Notes under the pieces: generated by a model
The model's input: only the letters and a program-made list of their open reading frames with translations
What the model was told of the DNA's origin: nothing
Database searches by the model: none
Made by a program: the position numbers and the translations under genes
Shown: positions 18,210-25,656 of the stretch, piece after piece
How the letters are laid out: the number at the start of each line of letters is the position of its first letter
Numbering within the stretch: position 1 is the first letter of the stretch
Source: Minisyncoccota bacterium
GTDB taxonomy: Bacteria > Patescibacteriota > Minisyncoccia > Phycocordibacterales > UBA9973
Length of the DNA: 64,000 nucleotides
Direction of reading: 5' to 3'
Assembly: GCA_041664285.1 (NCBI GenBank)
Contig: JBAYLA010000001.1
Location: 138,092 to 202,091, forward strand

Positions 18210-18235
18210 ATGTTTCTCGTGCTAGCACTTGATGG

Positions 18236-18290
18236 TGACCCTAATTATACGGAATTGGAACTTTATTTTTAATCAAATAAAAGGATTTTC
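18236..18290 (+). repeat. 55-bp direct repeat, left copy; resembles a degenerate tRNA-Glu 3' end (att-like)
   Basis: GTGACCCTAATTATACGGAATTGGAAC...AATCAAATAAAAGGATTTT is about 85% identical to 18878-18934. It begins with GTGACCCTA, the same 9 nt as the 3' acceptor end of tRNA-Glu(TTC) at 25259. Confidence 0.6.
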
Positions 18291-18311
18291 TAAAATACAA
18301 TTTTATATATA

Positions 18312-18349
18312 AAAACAGAAGGCCTCGCATAGAACGAAGAGCGAGGCTC
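18312..18349 (-). terminator. Rho-independent terminator (minus strand)
   Basis: On the minus strand: GCCTCGC-TCTTCGTTCTAT-GCGAGGCC followed by TTCTGTTTTT. It lies 35 nt downstream of the stop of ORF 18384..18773. Confidence 0.6.
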
Positions 18350-18383
18350 CTGTCTGTGCGAGGCTTGATACTTGGAGATCTGG

Positions 18384-18773
18384 CTATGGGAGGTTCGTGG
18401 GAGGTTTCATGAAGGAGTAGCCTACGCTGAATCCTTGACGAAAAATGACTACCAGCTCGAAGGACGACTCCTTCATTCCTGGCTCGTAGAGGGAAAGATC
18501 CACGAAAATCTGGTTTATCCACTCGCTCAGTACGACTGTCATCCGGTTCGAGTTCCTGAAGACTGCCAAGAGATAATTCCTCTTAACGCCTTCGGGGCGC
18601 AGGTATTCTCCCAAGAAATCCTTGAACTTTTCGTCGATGTCGTCTTTCGCTCCGGTCATGTTCTGTATGAACGAGAACGGAAAGCTCGACGCACTTTTTA
18701 GGACTGGGCTATCTTTCCACGCATTCCACTGTACCCAGAGCTTCGGATCGATCGAAGTGTTGATCTTTTTCAT
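18384..18773 (-). CDS. hypothetical protein (129 aa) in a GC-rich (about 50%) 0.6-kb cassette
   Basis: It is the only ORF in the cassette whose orientation matches the downstream terminator. Its composition is foreign relative to the flanks. Confidence 0.4.
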   Translation of the reverse strand: MKKINTSIDPKLWVQWNAWKDSPVLKSASSFPFSFIQNMTGAKDDIDEKFKDFLGEYLRPEGVKRNYLLAVFRNSNRMTVVLSEWINQIFVDLSLYEPGMKESSFELVVIFRQGFSVGYSFMKPPTNLP

Positions 18774-18877
18774 AATTTTCCCTTTCTAAGGAAGGCTTAC
18801 TACGGCCTGTACGGGACCCGACGTTGTTGTCAGGTTGTCCGTTATATTTTTAACACTATTATTAGCTCGTGTCAATT

Positions 18878-18934
18878 TGTGACCCTAATTATACAGAATT
18901 GGAACCACATTTTCAATCAAATAAAGGATTTTGC
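18878..18934 (+). repeat. 55-bp direct repeat, right copy (att-like)
   Basis: GTGACCCTAATTATACAGAATTGGAACC...AATCAAATAAAGGATTTTG. Confidence 0.6.
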
Positions 18935-18988
18935 GTTTTAATATAAATTGCCCTTATCCTAAAATTAGTGTAAAATGAGCTCATAACT

Positions 18989-19246
18989 ATGGATGAAAAT
19001 TACAGAAGGGTAAAATTTAATGACGTTTTTGATGAGAAGCCCGATGGGTCTTTATCTCCCAAAGTACCCATTGAAATAAATGGCGTAAATTTTAATTCTG
19101 GAACCACTTTTTCCAAAGGGGTTGTTTTTGGTGGTATCGATTTTCACCTCTATAAGAATCGAGATATAGCAATCCAAAATTCTGAAGTACCTGAAGAAAA
19201 TACTGATAGTACTGTATTTCACATAGTTGGTTTTTATAAAGAATAA
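18989..19246 (+). CDS. hypothetical protein (85 aa), element-borne
   Basis: Track ORF; first of three tightly packed co-directional small ORFs. Confidence 0.35.
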   Translation: MDENYRRVKFNDVFDEKPDGSLSPKVPIEINGVNFNSGTTFSKGVVFGGIDFHLYKNRDIAIQNSEVPEENTDSTVFHIVGFYKE

Positions 19247-19251
19247 ATAGT

Positions 19252-19611
19252 ATGGCCGATAAAAATCCTACAAAAACTGAAATCCTAGGAACGGTACAAG
19301 CTCAAGCAGAAACTTTAAAAGAATTATCTGAGCGCCTTGTAAAGATTGAAGGTCAAACGGAAAAACAAGAATCAAGAAATCAAAACATAATATATGCGGT
19401 ACTTTTCGCGCTTGCATTTATCGTAGTAACTGTTAGTGTTGAAGTTATACTATCGAGTAAAAGTGATAATTCTGTCGCTAATGATTTTTCTGAAAAACTT
19501 TTCAATATACAAGAAAATACAAACAACAAAATGAATGGTTTACAGAGCACAATAAATAGTATTCAAAGTGAAATTTTATTATTAAGAGCAAAAAATCCTT
19601 ATTTAAAATAA
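19252..19611 (+). CDS. hypothetical coiled-coil membrane protein (119 aa), element-borne
   Basis: Track ORF with a central TM helix flanked by coiled-coil-like segments. Confidence 0.35.
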   Translation: MADKNPTKTEILGTVQAQAETLKELSERLVKIEGQTEKQESRNQNIIYAVLFALAFIVVTVSVEVILSSKSDNSVANDFSEKLFNIQENTNNKMNGLQSTINSIQSEILLLRAKNPYLK

Positions 19612-19613
19612 AT

Positions 19614-19898
19614 ATGAAATCATATACCGTTAGAATTGAATTGCAAAATTCTGTTTTGGGAGATTACGAATCTCTTCATGTCGCAATGGAATCCGCTGGC
19701 TTTAGGAAGTTTATTATTTCAGATCAAGGTATTAAATACAAACTTCCAAATGGGGAATATAATATTTCTGGTAATTTTGATAGGGCAACAATTTTATCTT
19801 TGGCGAAAAGTGCAGTTACAACTACAAATAAAACTGCAGAGATATTGGTAACAGAGTCAAGTGGACGAACTTGGGCTAATCTGAAAGTTATAAAATAG
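19614..19898 (+). CDS. hypothetical protein (94 aa), element-borne
   Basis: Track ORF starting 3 nt after the preceding stop. Confidence 0.35.
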   Translation: MKSYTVRIELQNSVLGDYESLHVAMESAGFRKFIISDQGIKYKLPNGEYNISGNFDRATILSLAKSAVTTTNKTAEILVTESSGRTWANLKVIK

Positions 19899-19908
19899 TT
19901 TATAGATA

Positions 19909-21072
19909 TTATCTATTTCCTTTTGCTCGATTATGCGTTTTGCACAACATCTCACAATTATTAAGCATTGTTTTGCCACCTTTACTCCAAGCTGATACAT
20001 GGTCGGCGTCCATATCCGAAATACTCCAAATCTTGTCTTTGTTTGCATCGTGTCCAATCGCACAGTGAGAGCAGTTTGAAATACCTTTTTTCTTTGCGAT
20101 AGCAGTTTGAGCTTCGTAAACTGAACGCTTAGTTGAATCCTCAAATATTCTTACTTCAAGTAGCTTTGTTTCAACTTCTCCACCTAAAACATATTCAAAA
20201 ATGCCTTTTCGACTTTTTACGAAACCATCGGCATAGAGTTTTTTAACCAAAGCAGAGACGGTAGTCGGATTGTATTTTTTCTTGTGGTAAGTTTCGTAAA
20301 GCCTGTTCCATTCCAAGCCTCTCATATCACTTTCAACTTCAGTAAATATGGTTGAAACCCAATCAATGACTGTGTTGAAATGCTTTTTTAGCTCTGTAAT
20401 ATTTGTATCCTTTCTATGCATGCTCATGTAGTTGTCGATTGCACCGCCAGAAACCCAATCTAAGGCCTGTTCCAAATATGCTTGGCGTTTGATATCACCA
20501 GCTATGTACGCGCTCCATTTATGGACATTAGCATTTTGGCTATTACTAAACTCTTCGCGCGCCTTGGTAACAAAAGTCCCAGAATAGACAGCGTTCAAAA
20601 TTTCCTGCTCGGTCAGTGGCACACCAGCGATATTGATAGTCTTGAACCAATCCTTGATTTCAGGTTCGTCGCCTTCACACACATACACTAGCAACTTAGT
20701 ATTCATTATCTGCTCGCGCTGGCTAGTAGCCATACCACTGTAGTATTGTTCATGACCATTTTTGTCTTTGACTGCAAACTTACCAGCCACAAACCGACCG
20801 ATGCTCGTAATGCGTTGCTGACCGTCTAGCACCTCAAATTTATCCTTACCAGCTTGATTGAAATAAATTAAACCAATAGGATATCCTTTTAAAATTGAGT
20901 CAATAACCGCGACATCTTTTTTGCCATCAGCATAAATGTAATTACGCTGATACTCTGGCTGAATAGTTAGTTTGCCAGAGAGACCAAACAAACCTTTTCC
21001 TTCGAGTTCATTGTAGACGAAACCGTCGCAAACTTCTTTAATGGTAATATCATTTTTTAAGGTTGTTTTCAT
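19909..21072 (-). CDS. DUF262 (ParB-like DGQQR nuclease/NTPase domain) fused to a C-terminal HNH endonuclease; GmrSD/SspE-like
   Basis: The N-terminal ...FEVLDGQQRITSI... block is the DUF262 hallmark. The C-terminal CSHCAIGHD...DADHVSAWSKGGKT...NCEMLCKTHNRAKGN is an HNH motif. Confidence 0.7.
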   Translation of the reverse strand: MKTTLKNDITIKEVCDGFVYNELEGKGLFGLSGKLTIQPEYQRNYIYADGKKDVAVIDSILKGYPIGLIYFNQAGKDKFEVLDGQQRITSIGRFVAGKFAVKDKNGHEQYYSGMATSQREQIMNTKLLVYVCEGDEPEIKDWFKTINIAGVPLTEQEILNAVYSGTFVTKAREEFSNSQNANVHKWSAYIAGDIKRQAYLEQALDWVSGGAIDNYMSMHRKDTNITELKKHFNTVIDWVSTIFTEVESDMRGLEWNRLYETYHKKKYNPTTVSALVKKLYADGFVKSRKGIFEYVLGGEVETKLLEVRIFEDSTKRSVYEAQTAIAKKKGISNCSHCAIGHDANKDKIWSISDMDADHVSAWSKGGKTMLNNCEMLCKTHNRAKGNR

Positions 21073-21073
21073 A

Positions 21074-22264
21074 TTATTTCTTTTTGTGTTTAATTAGAAC
21101 TCTCTGATAAACTTTTTCTCTTAATCCATCACGAATAACAACACCACTCGCATTTAAATCATATACTCCTTTTTTCCCAAACTTATCTAAGTATGCCTGC
21201 TTACATTCCGCTGATGTATAAAATTTGGTCTTTAAACTATAAAGATCTTCGTTTTCACACATTCCTACAATCTTAAACTGTTCAGGAGAATACTTATCAA
21301 GAAAACTAATTGGCACACCCATGATGCCTTTGTAATTACTTGGTATGTTTTTTACTAGCGATACTTCAATCGCATCGTAGTTTTCATATTTCTCAAACTC
21401 TTTATTTGTTGAGAACTTGATTACATCTGCTCCTGACATCAAGGGAATTGGTTGGTGTAGTCGTCCGTGATCAAGATTTGTAAACCAACGCACCCCTTGG
21501 ACTCTTGTTATATAAGTCTTTTTACCTTTTTTGTCAGTCTTAATTTCACGTACTTGATCTAAGTTTGCAACAGCTTCTGGAATCTCATAGAACATTGCAC
21601 CGCCATTAACCCTTGCATTGTTTCCGAGCCATACCTTATTCTCTTTGATCATTGGAAAAATTTCCTTATAAGTTATTGCATTGAGATTACCAATGATTAG
21701 AAATTGTTTTTTGTGCTCGAAAAGTTGCGTAATATATTCACGAAATAAACTAAATGGAGGATTAGTGACTACTATGTCAGATTGTTTGAGCAACTCGACA
21801 CATTCGTCACTTCTAAAATCACCTTCACCCTCAAGCGGAGTCCATTCGTTGTTTTTGTTAGTTCTAAGTTGCTTCGCGATATCTTCTAGCGTAAAAGAGC
21901 CGTCGCCGTCCATGTCACCAACTTCGTTGATAATAAATTTGTTGGCAGTTACTTTTGGACGACCTTTTGATTTAGTAAGAGTTTTATCATCGCCAAATAA
22001 TCCCAATTGCGTATTGGCTACAGGTGAGGGTTTGTAACTTGTAGTGATAAGTTGTTTAAGTCCTAGTTTGTCAAAATTAAGTACAAAATAGCGAAAGAAA
22101 TTACTTTCGAATGGGTCGTCGCAGTTGCTGTAAACCACCTTACCTTTAAAAGTATTTGAGTCATACTCAAGATAGGACTCTACCTCTTTTTGAATATCAG
22201 AAAATTGAGTATAAAACTCATCATTTTTTGCCCGTTTTGCATTTGTGAGATTTTTGTTCGCCAT
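21074..22264 (-). CDS. N6-adenine DNA methyltransferase (EcoRI-methylase-like family)
   Basis: N-terminal KNDEFYTQFSDIQKEV block and motif IV VVTNPPF. It lies immediately upstream of, and is co-transcribed with, the DUF262-HNH gene (1-nt gap). Confidence 0.6.
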   Translation of the reverse strand: MANKNLTNAKRAKNDEFYTQFSDIQKEVESYLEYDSNTFKGKVVYSNCDDPFESNFFRYFVLNFDKLGLKQLITTSYKPSPVANTQLGLFGDDKTLTKSKGRPKVTANKFIINEVGDMDGDGSFTLEDIAKQLRTNKNNEWTPLEGEGDFRSDECVELLKQSDIVVTNPPFSLFREYITQLFEHKKQFLIIGNLNAITYKEIFPMIKENKVWLGNNARVNGGAMFYEIPEAVANLDQVREIKTDKKGKKTYITRVQGVRWFTNLDHGRLHQPIPLMSGADVIKFSTNKEFEKYENYDAIEVSLVKNIPSNYKGIMGVPISFLDKYSPEQFKIVGMCENEDLYSLKTKFYTSAECKQAYLDKFGKKGVYDLNASGVVIRDGLREKVYQRVLIKHKKK

Positions 22265-22530
22265 ATGTATCCTAACTTATGTTGAGAATTATAGCTGTTT
22301 TGGTTCCAAATTGCTAATGGTATTGACGCCATGAAATAGTTTAATGCCTAACCTGTCTTTTGGATTGACTTTTCGGAAAAAAAAGTGTACACTGTTATGG
22401 TAATAACAAAGAAGTTATCACAAAGCAAGTTTGAGTCAAAAGAATTTTAGAGAGAACTGGGACATAACCAGTTTTTTTATTTTTTAGGGAGATAACTCTC
22501 TAAAAAAAACAAAACAACGCACGTTTTTTA

Positions 22531-22566
22531 AAGCCCTCTTGAGCGAAATCCCGAGAGGGCTTTTTG
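22531..22566 (+). terminator. intrinsic terminator-like hairpin (bidirectional)
   Basis: GCCCTCT-tgagcgaaatccc-gAGAGGGC flanked by a T-run and an A-run. Confidence 0.5.
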
Positions 22567-22619
22567 CGTTTCCGTGTGGGCGCAAAATGCGTAATGGGTT
22601 TCGTTCTTTATAGCCGTAT

Positions 22620-22720
22620 TTGTGGTCGTAGCGATATCAGATTAGTGGCTGGCCACTTGTCTATCGCAATTACGACCACGATCCAAGCTAGTCGCCACCC
22701 GCTTTAGCGGTGGCGACGTT
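22620..22720. promoter_or_regulatory. GC-rich hairpin cluster upstream of rep; candidate rolling-circle double-strand origin / nick site
   Basis: GTGGTCGTAGCGATA...TATCGCAATTACGACCAC forms an imperfect 15-bp stem with a GTGGCTGGCCAC palindrome in its loop. GTCGCCACCCGC-TTTA-GCGGTGGCGAC forms an 11-12-bp stem. Confidence 0.45.
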
Positions 22721-22774
22721 GGACGAGCGAAGCGAGTCCGTTGGACTTGATTATACCCACACTTAAAGAGAAAT

Positions 22775-23593
22775 ATGAAATCAACAAATAGAACAATGAT
22801 TATATCTGGCTCAACGATTGAGGCTTATCACTACAAGGAAAGTCCATTGTTTTATGATTACGAAGTGCCTAAGGTTAAAAAATATCCGATTTTAGTTATT
22901 GATGAAGAAAGTGCGCAAAGAAAAATTGAATCTAGAAAATCTTCACAACATCGCTCTCGTTCTGTATTGAGAAGATTGGTAAATACAAATGCGTGGAAAT
23001 GGTATAAGGCTAGTGGTATTCCTTTCATTCCCATTTTTCTAACATTCACATTTGCTGAAAATGTAAAAGATATTAAAGTTGCCAACCCTATTTTTTCTAA
23101 ATTTATTAAGAGATTTAATTATGAAATTACTGGACAAAAGAAAAGTTTTCTTAAGTATGTTGTTGTTACTGAATTTCAAGAGCGTGGGGCAGTTCATTTT
23201 CATGCCGTATTTTTTAATTTAAAACATATTTGGGTTGATACGCTTACTAAAATTTGGGGTCAAGGTTTTATTAAATTAAAGAAAATTAGCCATGTTGATA
23301 ATGTTGGAGCATATATTTCTAAATACATGGTTAAGCATTTTGAAGACGATAGACTTGATGGAAAGAAAAGATATTTTTCAAGTAGCGGATTGATAAAGCC
23401 GACAGTTATAAAAGATGAAGTAAAAGTTCTTCAAATAATAAAGCGTATACCGAAAAAATATCTTAAACATGAAACTGAATATGAAAGAAAACATAAAGGC
23501 AAGAAAATAGGCACCGTTGAATACGTGCAATACAAAATAGACAAGAAGGAGTCTATCTTTGACATTATTCCTGAACTCAAACAAATGCCATGA
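22775..23593 (+). CDS. rolling-circle replication initiator (HUH endonuclease superfamily Rep)
   Basis: Motif I FLTFTF, motif II GAVHFHAVFF (HUH), motif III GAYISKYMVKH (catalytic Tyr), in canonical order. Confidence 0.7.
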   Translation: MKSTNRTMIISGSTIEAYHYKESPLFYDYEVPKVKKYPILVIDEESAQRKIESRKSSQHRSRSVLRRLVNTNAWKWYKASGIPFIPIFLTFTFAENVKDIKVANPIFSKFIKRFNYEITGQKKSFLKYVVVTEFQERGAVHFHAVFFNLKHIWVDTLTKIWGQGFIKLKKISHVDNVGAYISKYMVKHFEDDRLDGKKRYFSSSGLIKPTVIKDEVKVLQIIKRIPKKYLKHETEYERKHKGKKIGTVEYVQYKIDKKESIFDIIPELKQMP

Positions 23594-23772
23594 TTACTCC
23601 TGCCGACTGCCGAAAAATTGACCCTGCTCTTGAAAGTAAAACTGATAAGGAATTACAGGAGGTTATTGAACTTTTGTATGGTCTTGGAGGACTTGCCCTT
23701 GAATCATATTTTAGCGGTTCCAAAAATCTCCGTGGGGTATCTAGACTTAATAATAGTGATGTGCCAAAGTAA
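23590..23772 (+). CDS. hypothetical small protein (60 aa) between rep and the recombinase; possible directionality factor (speculative)
   Basis: Track ORF overlapping the rep stop (ATGCCATGA). Confidence 0.25.
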   Translation: MITPADCRKIDPALESKTDKELQEVIELLYGLGGLALESYFSGSKNLRGVSRLNNSDVPK

Positions 23773-23776
23773 TGCT

Positions 23777-25297
23777 ATGAATACTACCGATACAAAAAAT
23801 GGTGTTATCTATGTCCGAGTTTCTTCTGCTGAACAAATAGACGGCACAAGTTTAGAATCCCAAGAAAGATTTTGCCAAGAATATGCCAAGCGCGAAAATA
23901 TAAATGTCTTAAAAGTTTTTATTGAAAAAGGTGAATCTGCTAAGACGGCAAATAGAACCGAATTTATTAAAGCCATTAGTTTTTGCTCTGAAAAGAAAAA
24001 TAAAATAGAGTGCTTTATCGTTTACAAAGTTGATAGATTTGCTCGCAGTCAATCAGACCATATTTCTGTTAAGGAAACATTGAAAAAATATAATACAGAA
24101 CTTCATTCTGTTACTGAACCTATTGGTGATAGCCCAATGGGTAAAATGATGGAGGGCATACTCTCTACTTTTGCAGAGTTTGATAACAATGTCCGAACAG
24201 AAAGAAGTGTTAATGGTATGAGAGAACGCCTAAAACAAGGTGTATGGGTCTGGCAGGCTCCTCTAGGTTATTACAGAACTTCACAGGGCGAAAACATTAG
24301 TCCTGATCCTAAATTTGCTCCCTATGTGGAACTTGCCTTTAATGAATTTGCTAAAGGAACTTATACTTTTGAATCTCTAGCGAACTTTTTAAATGAAAGA
24401 GGTTTTGTAACTAAATGCGGAAATAAAGCCACCCCTTCTTTAATGGATAAAATAATTAAGAATCCTCTTTATTGCGGAATAATTAAAGTCTGGGACATGG
24501 AACATAAAGGTAGTTTTAATTACATTATTTCGGAAGAACTTTTTAATAAATGTAATGGACGGAAGAAAAAAGAATATATGCCTCGTCTTGCTAAAAATTC
24601 TAATTTCCCATTAAGAAAGTTGGTGGTATGTGAATCTTGCCAGCATTCGCTTACAGGAAGCTCGTCTACGGGCAGAAAGGGCGTTAAATATCCTTATTAT
24701 CACCACCACAAACAAACTTGCCCTTCAGCTAAATTTATTCCAAAAGAAACATTTGAACAGTTGTTTGTGGAATATCTAGCCGATATTACTCCTAGCCCAG
24801 AATATGAAAAAGTATTTAAGGCTATTGTTGTTGATATTTGGAAGAATAATTTTAAGAAGTTGGACGAGCAGAATGAACAAGTGCGAAAAGAAATCAAGGT
24901 TTTTGAAAATCAAAGACAGCGTGTTTTTGAAATGCACCAATCAGGTGTATATTCTGATCAAGATTTTATAGCACAGAAAGATATTCTTAATAAAAAGATT
25001 GCCGAGAAGAAACTTTTGATTCACGAAAAGGCTGTAGAAGAATTTAATATGGACGAAGCATTAGAATATTGCTTTAACTACATACGAGAAACTTCTAAGA
25101 CATGGATTGAACTTGAAACTGAACCAGAGAGAAGATTACGGTTCCAAAAATTTATATTTGCAGAAAATTTAGGATTTTCTGGTGAAGAATTTGGAACCAC
25201 AAAATTAACGCCTATTTACAGCATGTATCAGCAATATTTGACTGAACCATCTTCACTTGTGACCCTACTGGGAATCGCACCCAGATTACCAGCTTGA
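23777..25297 (+). CDS. large serine recombinase / integrase
   Basis: N-terminal resolvase domain GVIYVRVSSAEQ (catalytic Ser) ...VYKVDRFARS, a recombinase domain, zinc ribbon CESCQHSL...YYHHH, and a C-terminal coiled coil. Start taken at the ATG encoding MNTTD. The 3' end overlaps tRNA-Glu. Confidence 0.85.
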   Translation: MNTTDTKNGVIYVRVSSAEQIDGTSLESQERFCQEYAKRENINVLKVFIEKGESAKTANRTEFIKAISFCSEKKNKIECFIVYKVDRFARSQSDHISVKETLKKYNTELHSVTEPIGDSPMGKMMEGILSTFAEFDNNVRTERSVNGMRERLKQGVWVWQAPLGYYRTSQGENISPDPKFAPYVELAFNEFAKGTYTFESLANFLNERGFVTKCGNKATPSLMDKIIKNPLYCGIIKVWDMEHKGSFNYIISEELFNKCNGRKKKEYMPRLAKNSNFPLRKLVVCESCQHSLTGSSSTGRKGVKYPYYHHHKQTCPSAKFIPKETFEQLFVEYLADITPSPEYEKVFKAIVVDIWKNNFKKLDEQNEQVRKEIKVFENQRQRVFEMHQSGVYSDQDFIAQKDILNKKIAEKKLLIHEKAVEEFNMDEALEYCFNYIRETSKTWIELETEPERRLRFQKFIFAENLGFSGEEFGTTKLTPIYSMYQQYLTEPSSLVTLLGIAPRLPA

Positions 25298-25330
25298 AAA
25301 GCTGATGTCCTAACTATTAGACGATAGGGC
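25259..25330 (-). tRNA. tRNA-Glu (anticodon TTC); integration target
   Basis: Reverse complement GGCCCTA-TC-GTCTAATAGTTAGGAC-AT-CAGC-TTTTCAA-GCTG-GTAAT-CTGGGTGCGATTCCCAG-TAGGGTC-A. Confidence 0.8.
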
Positions 25331-25656
25331 CAAAACAGTTAATATCATACCATTTTTTGAAAAAATCGCAAAAATCTTGCAATTATAAAAATTTTATTTT
25401 ATAATAAAACCATGGCAAAGAAAGTTAATTATATGAATACAGCTTGGTGGACGACTCACATTTGTGGGTAGTCTTTCGTTGTATCTATAATTATCTCTAA
25501 AAACAACAACACGCAAGATACCCACAGAAAAGTGGGTTTTTTATTTGTTATTTAATTTTAAGATGAATAAATTTATTTTTAAAAATCATTGTACGGAGTT
25601 CTGGCAATAATAAACATTGTGCAGTTTTCTTATTATTATCTTAAAAATTAAACTAT

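Follow-up and report, generated by a model that had tools for sequence, protein, structure and literature searches.

Nucleases with an N-terminal DUF262 domain bearing a DGQQR motif are known from the Type IV enzymes GmrSD and BrxU, which end in a DUF1524 domain, stand alone and attack modified DNA. Effectors of the same fold, SspE and DndI, act as the restriction arms of the host DNA-modification systems SspABCD-SspE and DndBCDE-DndI, whose mark is a phosphorothioate made by a multi-gene pathway. Nucleases of the HNH type are found in Type II restriction-modification (R-M) systems such as KpnI, Hpy99I and PacI, in which separate methylase and nuclease genes share an operon, the nuclease carries a zinc-binding HNH domain and methylation of adenine or cytosine gives protection; these enzymes are small, have no ParB/Srx domain binding nucleoside triphosphates (NTPs) and read their own sequence. 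In the present work, we examined a gene pair of a Minisyncoccota bacterium, in which an EcoRI-family methyltransferase (MTase), here called M, is followed by a DUF262-HNH protein, here called R. The pair lies in a 64,000-nucleotide (nt) stretch of contig JBAYLA010000001.1 (assembly GCA_041664285.1, positions 138,092 to 202,091), which is referred to as the window.

An initial annotation of the window had proposed three options for the pair: an R-M-like module, an anti-restriction methylase next to a Type IV enzyme, or a post-segregational killing pair. The R-M-like option was the best supported of the three, because the HNH residues, the zinc ligands and the ParB/Srx-type NTP-binding motifs of R are all conserved, and it is highly probable that the pair is an R-M cassette. 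On balance, we also favour the fuller statement that R would be a generic nuclease and that the specificity of the cassette would reside in M. A constant nuclease combined with a mosaic methylase suggests an R-M variant in which a ParB-fold switch and an HNH nuclease may carry out the logic of Type I and Type III systems. The copy present in the window is not novel in itself; the pair is no peculiarity of its mobile element and belongs to a very common cassette that PADLOC labels as Type II R-M.

Anatomy of the gene pair

The M gene (21074-22264, minus strand) encodes a predicted N6-adenine DNA methyltransferase of 396 amino acids (aa), and the R gene (19909-21072, minus strand) encodes a protein of 387 aa composed of a DUF262 domain (ParB/Srx-like NTPase), a helical middle region and a zinc-HNH nuclease domain. 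When the junction was read (...AAA TAA T ATG...), the single base 21073 was found between the TAA stop codon of M and the ATG start codon of R on the minus strand; such a spacing makes translational coupling of the two genes likely. No terminator-like site was detected between M and R in a sequence scan of the locus. Upstream of M, a sigma-70-like candidate promoter site (TTAGCA-18-TATAAT, 22288-22317, minus strand) was picked up by a consensus scan only, with 10 of 12 matches.

Comparison of M with the Pfam profile PF13651 (EcoRI_methylase) gave a match over all profile positions (1-345 of 345; E 1.4e-121, 406 bits for a cut-off of 26.4). The protein contains the motifs NDEFYTQ (aa 14-20) and TNPPFS (aa 167-172), and the latter includes the catalytic motif IV, NPPF (aa 168-171; 21752-21763, minus strand), of which N168, P169, P170 and F171 are invariant in the two M family alignments. 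M thus has the whole-profile family and the NPPF motif IV in common with M.EcoRI, the founder of PF13651. However, M.EcoRI is paired with EcoRI, a PD-(D/E)xK nuclease, whereas the M subfamily described here spans 350-450 aa, contains two hypervariable, insert-rich modules and is paired with a DUF262-HNH protein.

Both proteins were also matched over their full length by PADLOC profiles, M by PDLC03297 MTase_II (E 7.5e-101) and R by PDLC03418 REase_II (aa 6-386 on profile positions 5-371 of 372, E 7.5e-85). This comparison, which the initial annotation had suggested, therefore classes the genes as a Type II MTase and a Type II restriction endonuclease (REase); the PADLOC paper is silent on the sequences from which its R-M profiles derive. 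No NCBIfam model matched M or R. The open reading frames (ORFs), coordinates, strand and 1-nt separation given by the initial annotation were exact, and the motifs on which it relied (NPPF, DEFYTQ and DGQQR) are all present.

The fusion of DUF262 to HNH within 387 aa was recovered as well. R matched PF03235 (GmrSD_N/DUF262) over aa 36-163 (20584-20967, minus strand; E 4e-23), with EYQR at aa 40-43 and DGQQR at aa 83-87 (20812-20826), and PF01844 (HNH) over aa 347-387, above the cut-off (25.6 bits for 21.4); PF14279, another HNH profile, also matches the C-terminus. The zinc-finger HNH domain extends over aa 334-387 (19912-20073, minus strand) and includes C334, C337, D357-H358, N372, C373, C377 and H380-N381, among which C334, C337, C373, C377 and H380 are the zinc ligands. 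All elements expected of a beta-beta-alpha-Me site of the PF01844 type, namely the D-H general base, the structural Asn, the metal-binding Asn/His and two Cys pairs for zinc, are found in R.

In order to follow these residues through the family, 58 diverse R sequences with a mean identity of 34% were aligned. Q42, R43, D83, G84, R87, Q156, E157, N160, W238, F243, R308, F310, C334 and H358 are invariant, and Q85, Q86, C337, N372 and C377 are conserved in at least 90% of the sequences. Since the residues of both sites are retained to this degree, the putative ParB/Srx-type nucleotide pocket and the HNH site of R both appear to be under selection. The initial annotation had named loss of the catalytic residues as an outcome that would count against it; the HNH domain is not degenerate.

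R shares the N-terminal DUF262 domain and its DGQQR motif with GmrSD and BrxU. It differs from them by its C-terminus, which is a PF01844 HNH domain with Cys/His zinc ligands in place of DUF1524 (the Pfam search gave no match of R to PF07510, the His-Me domain of GmrD), by a length shorter by about 200 aa, and by an obligatory link to an MTase gene. The nuclease domain of R is also different from those of the Ssp and Dnd effectors, and the mark made by M would be N6-methyladenine, laid down by a single EcoRI-family enzyme. No sspABCD or dndABCDE genes lie near R, whose neighbours are the MTase, a Rep gene, a serine recombinase gene and small ORFs.

An AlphaFold model of R was obtained with a mean pLDDT (local confidence score) of 77 and a pTM (global confidence score) of 0.43; because of the latter value, the relative placement of the domains in the model is uncertain. 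The structural neighbours returned by Foldseek were ParB CTPase folds, ParB-like proteins, sulfiredoxin and BrxU. Among DUF262 defence nucleases, BrxU, SspE and DndI were all found, and BrxU matched best. The neighbours of the C-terminus were McrA, Cas9 and the Gme HNH domain. A profile of R aligned with the Gme HNH structure (4h9d) at E 1e-6, with agreement of the Cys, His and Asn residues, and McrA was also matched. In the PDB, the single-sequence search gave no match for R or M, whereas the profile search gave the HNH domain and BrxU only for R and nothing for M. Among the solved structures compared with R, no Type II enzyme was alike.

The DUF262-HNH architecture and its pairing with M are undescribed in the full-text literature searched, although REBASE may hold assigned motifs for the family. 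A survey published in 2025 only lists fusions of a ParB CTPase to HNH, as novel and unstudied. HpyAXII (GTAC) was considered as a characterised relative and rejected, as it is a PabI-family glycosylase.

Linkage of the pair and mosaic structure of the methylase

R has more than 8000 relatives at E <1e-5. The best 120 are 74-90% identical to it and nearly all of them are exactly 387 aa long; among representatives clustered at 50% identity, 440 were found at E <=1e-30, mostly with the same full-length architecture. PGAP (the NCBI annotation pipeline) names R only as a "DUF262 domain-containing protein".

The neighbourhood of R was examined at 80 genome loci from Patescibacteria, Bacteroidota, Chloroflexota, Proteobacteria, Actinomycetota, Omnitrophota and Planctomycetota. 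An EcoRI-family MTase gene was found upstream of R and on the same strand at 78 of them, and the two others have little or no upstream DNA in which one could be seen. Locus L064 was set aside as a candidate for R without M, since its contig stops 3.2 kilobases (kb) upstream, past an inserted cargo gene. The M-R order was also observed on the chromosome of the gammaproteobacterium Pseudohongiella acticola, in Flavobacterium phage laban6-1 and on plasmids of Moraxella, Enterococcus faecium, Paucilactobacillus, Yimella and many Actinomycetota, so that Actinomycetota and Bacillota are both covered. Many copies of the cassette are chromosomal, and one plasmid copy has toxin-antitoxin pairs on both sides. 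In 75 cassettes other than that of the window, the spacing from M to R is mostly -4, +1 or +2 nt. Both M and R have their closest relatives in metagenome-assembled genomes of Patescibacteria, by which the host would probably belong to the candidate phyla radiation.

The reverse sample was anchored on M and comprised 74 evaluable loci in viral contigs. R was found downstream of M at 50 of these loci, including R proteins only 35-40% identical to that of the window, while 24 loci carried an orphan MTase in an ordinary phage context. Orphan M genes are thus common and orphan R genes rare, which is the signature expected of an R-M system in which a toxic nuclease needs its methylase. The pairing across phyla, plasmids and a phage answers the question of co-occurrence raised by the initial annotation, and its objection that the MTase might be a solitary phage-type enzyme fails, given that R almost never occurs without one. 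Furthermore, the search of representatives returned a protein of 688 aa (P0168) that joins EcoRI_methylase, GmrSD_N and HNH in a single polypeptide.

To compare the evolution of the two genes, M and R were extracted from 72 non-redundant cassettes, giving 2556 pairwise comparisons. REases usually diverge faster than their MTases. Here, R was more conserved than M in 97% of the pairs, with a mean identity of 76% versus 59%. The differences in M were concentrated in two modules recognised as dips of identity, V1 (aa 211-255; 21500-21634, minus strand) and V2 (aa 331-390; 21095-21274, minus strand), which we presume to be target-recognition elements. Identity to the window was 0.32-0.46 in V1 and 0.17-0.29 in V2. 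Identities in V1 and V2 were bimodal (<30% or >70%), whereas those of R and of the M core were unimodal.

V1 occurs as about 20 alleles and V2 as about 35, and 53 combinations of them are present in the 72 cassettes. This distribution shows free recombination between V1 and V2, which are shuffled independently of each other. A given allele was also met in cassettes with R proteins sharing only about 70% identity. Conversely, cassettes with nearly identical nucleases carried unrelated alleles: L041 and L053 share 98% identity in R and 26% in V2, L028 and L029 share 97% in R, 29% in V1 and 21% in V2, and L017 and L022 share 96% in R, 98% in V1 and 23% in V2. For 51 pairs, the R proteins share at least 90% identity; of these pairs, 25 differed in the V1 allele and 42 in the V2 allele.

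The same mosaic was seen in the DNA. Over the M core and R, the cassette of the window is 80-97% identical to others; this value falls to 7-58% exactly over V1 or V2, with sharp breakpoints, and beyond the cassette the flanking DNA is unrelated. The sharp drop concerned V1 only in the comparison with L009 and L020, and V2 only (7-45%) in that with L007 and L011. When the 376 pairs whose R proteins share at least 85% identity were scanned, no 20-aa window below 35% identity was found in R, although such windows were present in M in 94% of the pairs. Likewise, no segment of R was found to track the V1/V2 alleles in a regression over 30-aa windows (largest effect 0.035). At one locus, M is present as a tandem pair that differs in its alleles, with only one R. 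The initial annotation had called the pair unconventional; the fusion itself does not deserve the term, but the combination of a constant R with a mosaic M does.

V1 and V2 are read as recognition modules because they are discrete recombining modules between conserved flanks, like those of the Type I S subunit and of Type III Mod. By this analogy, they would set the methylation target. If they do so while R remains invariant, R could not itself read the target. A structure model of M had a pLDDT of 68 overall and was weakest in V2 (37-56), and PDB sequence and profile searches returned no solved MTase-DNA homologue on which V1 and V2 could be placed. Palindrome avoidance was analysed in the window, in the window minus the element and in the element alone, and no 4- or 6-mer stood out.

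In two Saccharibacteria loci (L044, 3460-4004; L068, 3452-4004), three C-terminal modules of M are stacked, each with a different V2. The stacked unit consists of GVPISFLDK, V2 and RI(F/L)IKHK, and its last copy abuts the start of R. Either these modules remain from successive replacements, or they form a reserve of cassettes between which deletions would switch.

Weighing of the rival readings and proposed mechanism

The main rival to a generic nuclease is a classical Type IIP or IIS system, in which R would read a fixed sequence, M would protect it and V1 and V2 would be tolerated loops. HNH enzymes of Type II are well known (KpnI, Hpy99I and PacI; PMC4081073), M and R are separate, adjacent and co-oriented genes (1-nt gap in the window; 78 of the 80 loci) in an M-then-R operon with likely translational coupling, and the curated PADLOC profiles for REase and MTase match both proteins over their full length. 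Type II recognition, on the other hand, is NTP-free and relies on the enzyme's own reading of its sequence, and both the constancy of R and its conserved NTP-binding motifs, for which a classical Type II enzyme has no use, point the other way. In contrast to KpnI-type enzymes, R has DUF262 as its N-terminal half and does not vary with the variable modules of M. A mosaic M next to a constant R argues against a classical Type IIP enzyme: the usual order of divergence is reversed in nearly all pairs, near-identical R proteins occur with unrelated alleles of modules that look like target-recognition elements, and R itself contains no mosaic or allele-linked segment. We therefore consider this rival rather unlikely. 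Several points weigh against the favoured reading, and two of them also favour the rival: PADLOC places R among Type II REases, and in several cassettes a gene of the XRE helix-turn-helix (HTH) family upstream of M resembles the controller (C) proteins of classical Type II R-M systems, although the cassette of the window has no such gene. V1 and V2 could be loops at the protein surface whose diversity has some other cause, and a specificity of R might, in principle, be shifted by a small number of substitutions. In addition, 12 of 75 cassettes have 0.6-2.4 kb of genes inserted between the two, so that tight coupling is not obligatory, and the M::R fusion P0168 could be an artefact of assembly or gene calling.

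Two further readings were weighed. R could be a GmrSD-like Type IV nuclease directed against modified phage DNA, with an independent orphan or anti-restriction methylase that guards the element. The characterised DUF262 nucleases GmrSD, BrxU and SspE all act on or sense modified DNA (PMC4619093, PMC12707154), BrxU is the best structural match of R, and orphan copies of the M family exist in phage genomes. Yet independent functions would not be expected to hold a coupled operon together at 78 of 80 loci, a pairing that persists in R proteins of as little as 35% identity; R is essentially never alone, its C-terminal domain is a PF01844 HNH and not the DUF1524 of GmrSD, and an M::R fusion has been found. 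This reading is consequently very improbable. The pair could also serve mainly to stabilise plasmids and integrative elements by post-segregational killing (addiction) and contribute little to phage defence, as the presence of the cassette on a 6.4-kb integrative element and on many small plasmids, once between two toxin-antitoxin pairs, would allow. Such an effect is not exclusive, since every R-M pair whose nuclease is stable has it; addiction is a by-product of any such pair and not an alternative to R-M. Moreover, the diversifying, reshuffled M alleles and the genes of the defence type found between M and R indicate that invaders, and not plain maintenance, exert the selection, and many copies are chromosomal, which makes a mainly addictive function highly unlikely.

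For the R-M cassette with a generic nuclease, the following mechanism can be proposed. M would mark resident DNA as an EcoRI-family N6-adenine MTase, and R, the coupled downstream product, would be the restriction subunit whose HNH domain cuts DNA lacking the mark. R would not read the target itself, the specificity being held by the exchangeable modules V1 and V2 of M; we infer that R depends on M or on its mark. Either R would be recruited by M, or complexed with it, at unmodified sites in the manner of Type I and Type III systems, or it would sense the N6-methyladenine marks of its partner, as SspE and DndI sense phosphorothioate. The conserved pocket also suggests a role for NTP in R, whose binding or hydrolysis at DUF262 could be the switch that licenses the HNH cut. 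Upon loss of the cassette, unprotected DNA would meet residual nuclease, and the carrier would thereby be stabilised.

The likeness to Type III and Type I systems would lie in the swappable modules of the modification subunit, if these indeed have a recognition role, and in the conserved, nucleotide-dependent and sequence-blind restriction subunit suggested here. The parts are unrelated. M belongs to the EcoRI family (PF13651), whereas Type III Mod is a beta-class N6_N4 enzyme and Type I systems use HsdM and HsdS; Type III Res combines an SF2 helicase ATPase with a PD-(D/E)xK nuclease, whereas R combines a ParB/Srx-type switch with HNH. It is conceivable, though somewhat doubtful, that the cassettes form an abundant and so far unrecognised minimal class of two-gene R-M systems with Type I/III logic in bacteria, plasmids and phages, with two independently shufflable recognition modules in a monomeric M and a universal nuclease made of a ParB-fold NTP switch and HNH.

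If R is generic and M sets the specificity, the cassette would be the smallest known R-M design that can be reprogrammed by swaps of short modules, as one recombination in M would change the specificity and leave R untouched. Its wide spread, with more than 8000 relatives that reach into bacteria of candidate phyla, plasmids of Gram-positive bacteria and phages, would thereby be explained. The ParB/Srx nucleotide-switch fold would gain a part in restriction guided by methylation, the DUF262 effectors that sense phosphorothioate (SspE and DndI) would be tied to ordinary adenine methylation, and biotechnology would receive a compact programmable methylase/nuclease pair. Should the pair be a plain Type IIP system, it would be a regular case of an R-M family that is common and poorly annotated. 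Assessments of transformation barriers overlook such systems because the annotation of R mentions nothing beyond its DUF262 domain.

The carrier element and variants of the cassette

The pair lies on an integrative element of about 6.4 kb inserted at a tRNA-Glu gene (18879-25268), delimited by repeats of the tRNA 3' end and equipped with an integrase. Besides three small ORFs, it contains M, R, Rep and a large serine recombinase. Rep (22775-23593, plus strand) matches PF23343 and PHROGs of the rolling-circle type. The recombinase (about 23777-25297, plus strand) has Resolvase, Recombinase and Zn-ribbon domains and matches a PHROG integrase at E 8.5e-83; its ORF runs into the tRNA-Glu gene (25259-25331, minus strand). 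The terminal 9 nt of this tRNA gene (GTGACCCTA) are repeated at 18879 and at 18235, and each repeat is followed by the same arm of about 45 nt. As the tRNA-Glu 3' end and the arm recur at these two positions, the element spans about 18879-25268, with a 644-nt tandem remnant on its left. The location on a mobile element, which the initial annotation had assumed, was thus borne out by Rep and the recombinase beyond the pair and by the tRNA-Glu 3'-end repeats. The arrangement of the gene pair and of its element is not a chance pattern. The element does not travel with the cassette: the other loci share the cassette only, in unrelated flanks.

In the region 23618-25331 of the window, the recombinase ORF reads 39 nt into the tRNA-Glu 3' end, and an ATG near 23777 is the more likely start. 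Because of this extension, the C-terminus of the recombinase is encoded by the tRNA gene when the element is integrated and would change in the excised circle. In the divergent intergenic region 5' of Rep (22500-22770), three hairpins were found; the fold of the single-stranded DNA reached -58.5 kcal/mol, versus -34.8 kcal/mol for shuffled sequences (z = -7.1), and this structured region is probably the replication origin of the element. The 644-nt remnant (18235-18878) has two copies of the tRNA-Glu 3' end and arm as its edges, 85% identical over 54 nt. Its GC content is above that of the surroundings and it contains an ORF of 129 aa (18384-18773, minus strand); no Rfam match was found for the remnant, nor any Pfam match for the ORF or the region. 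The remnant may represent a sister element, either decayed or miniature, that shares the integrase site.

Among the small ORFs of the element, a single one is phage-like: a 94-aa ORF (19614-19898, plus strand), convergent with R, matches phrog_8894 (function unassigned) over its full length at E 5.6e-18. In the Saccharibacteria locus L020 (2491-2567), a tRNA-Glu gene 84% identical to that of the window is found about 250 nt away from the cassette, with no Rep or integrase gene in between.

Cassettes from other genomes showed two further kinds of variation. The insertions between M and R (L008, L010, L022, L046, L056, L074-L077, L081, L086, L019 and L070) were judged by eye to include genes for DUF2130-like coiled-coil, AAA ATPase, RhuM/Fic-like, TIR-like, T5orf172/GIY-YIG-like and DUF3800-like proteins and for a second MTase. 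By analogy with the interior of Type I operons, the M-R junction seems to act as a hotspot for cargo of the defence type. In addition, a gene for an XRE-family HTH protein of 65 aa lies directly 5' of M in L091 (5668-5865), and the same arrangement was observed in L008, L011, L031, L035, L039 and L066.

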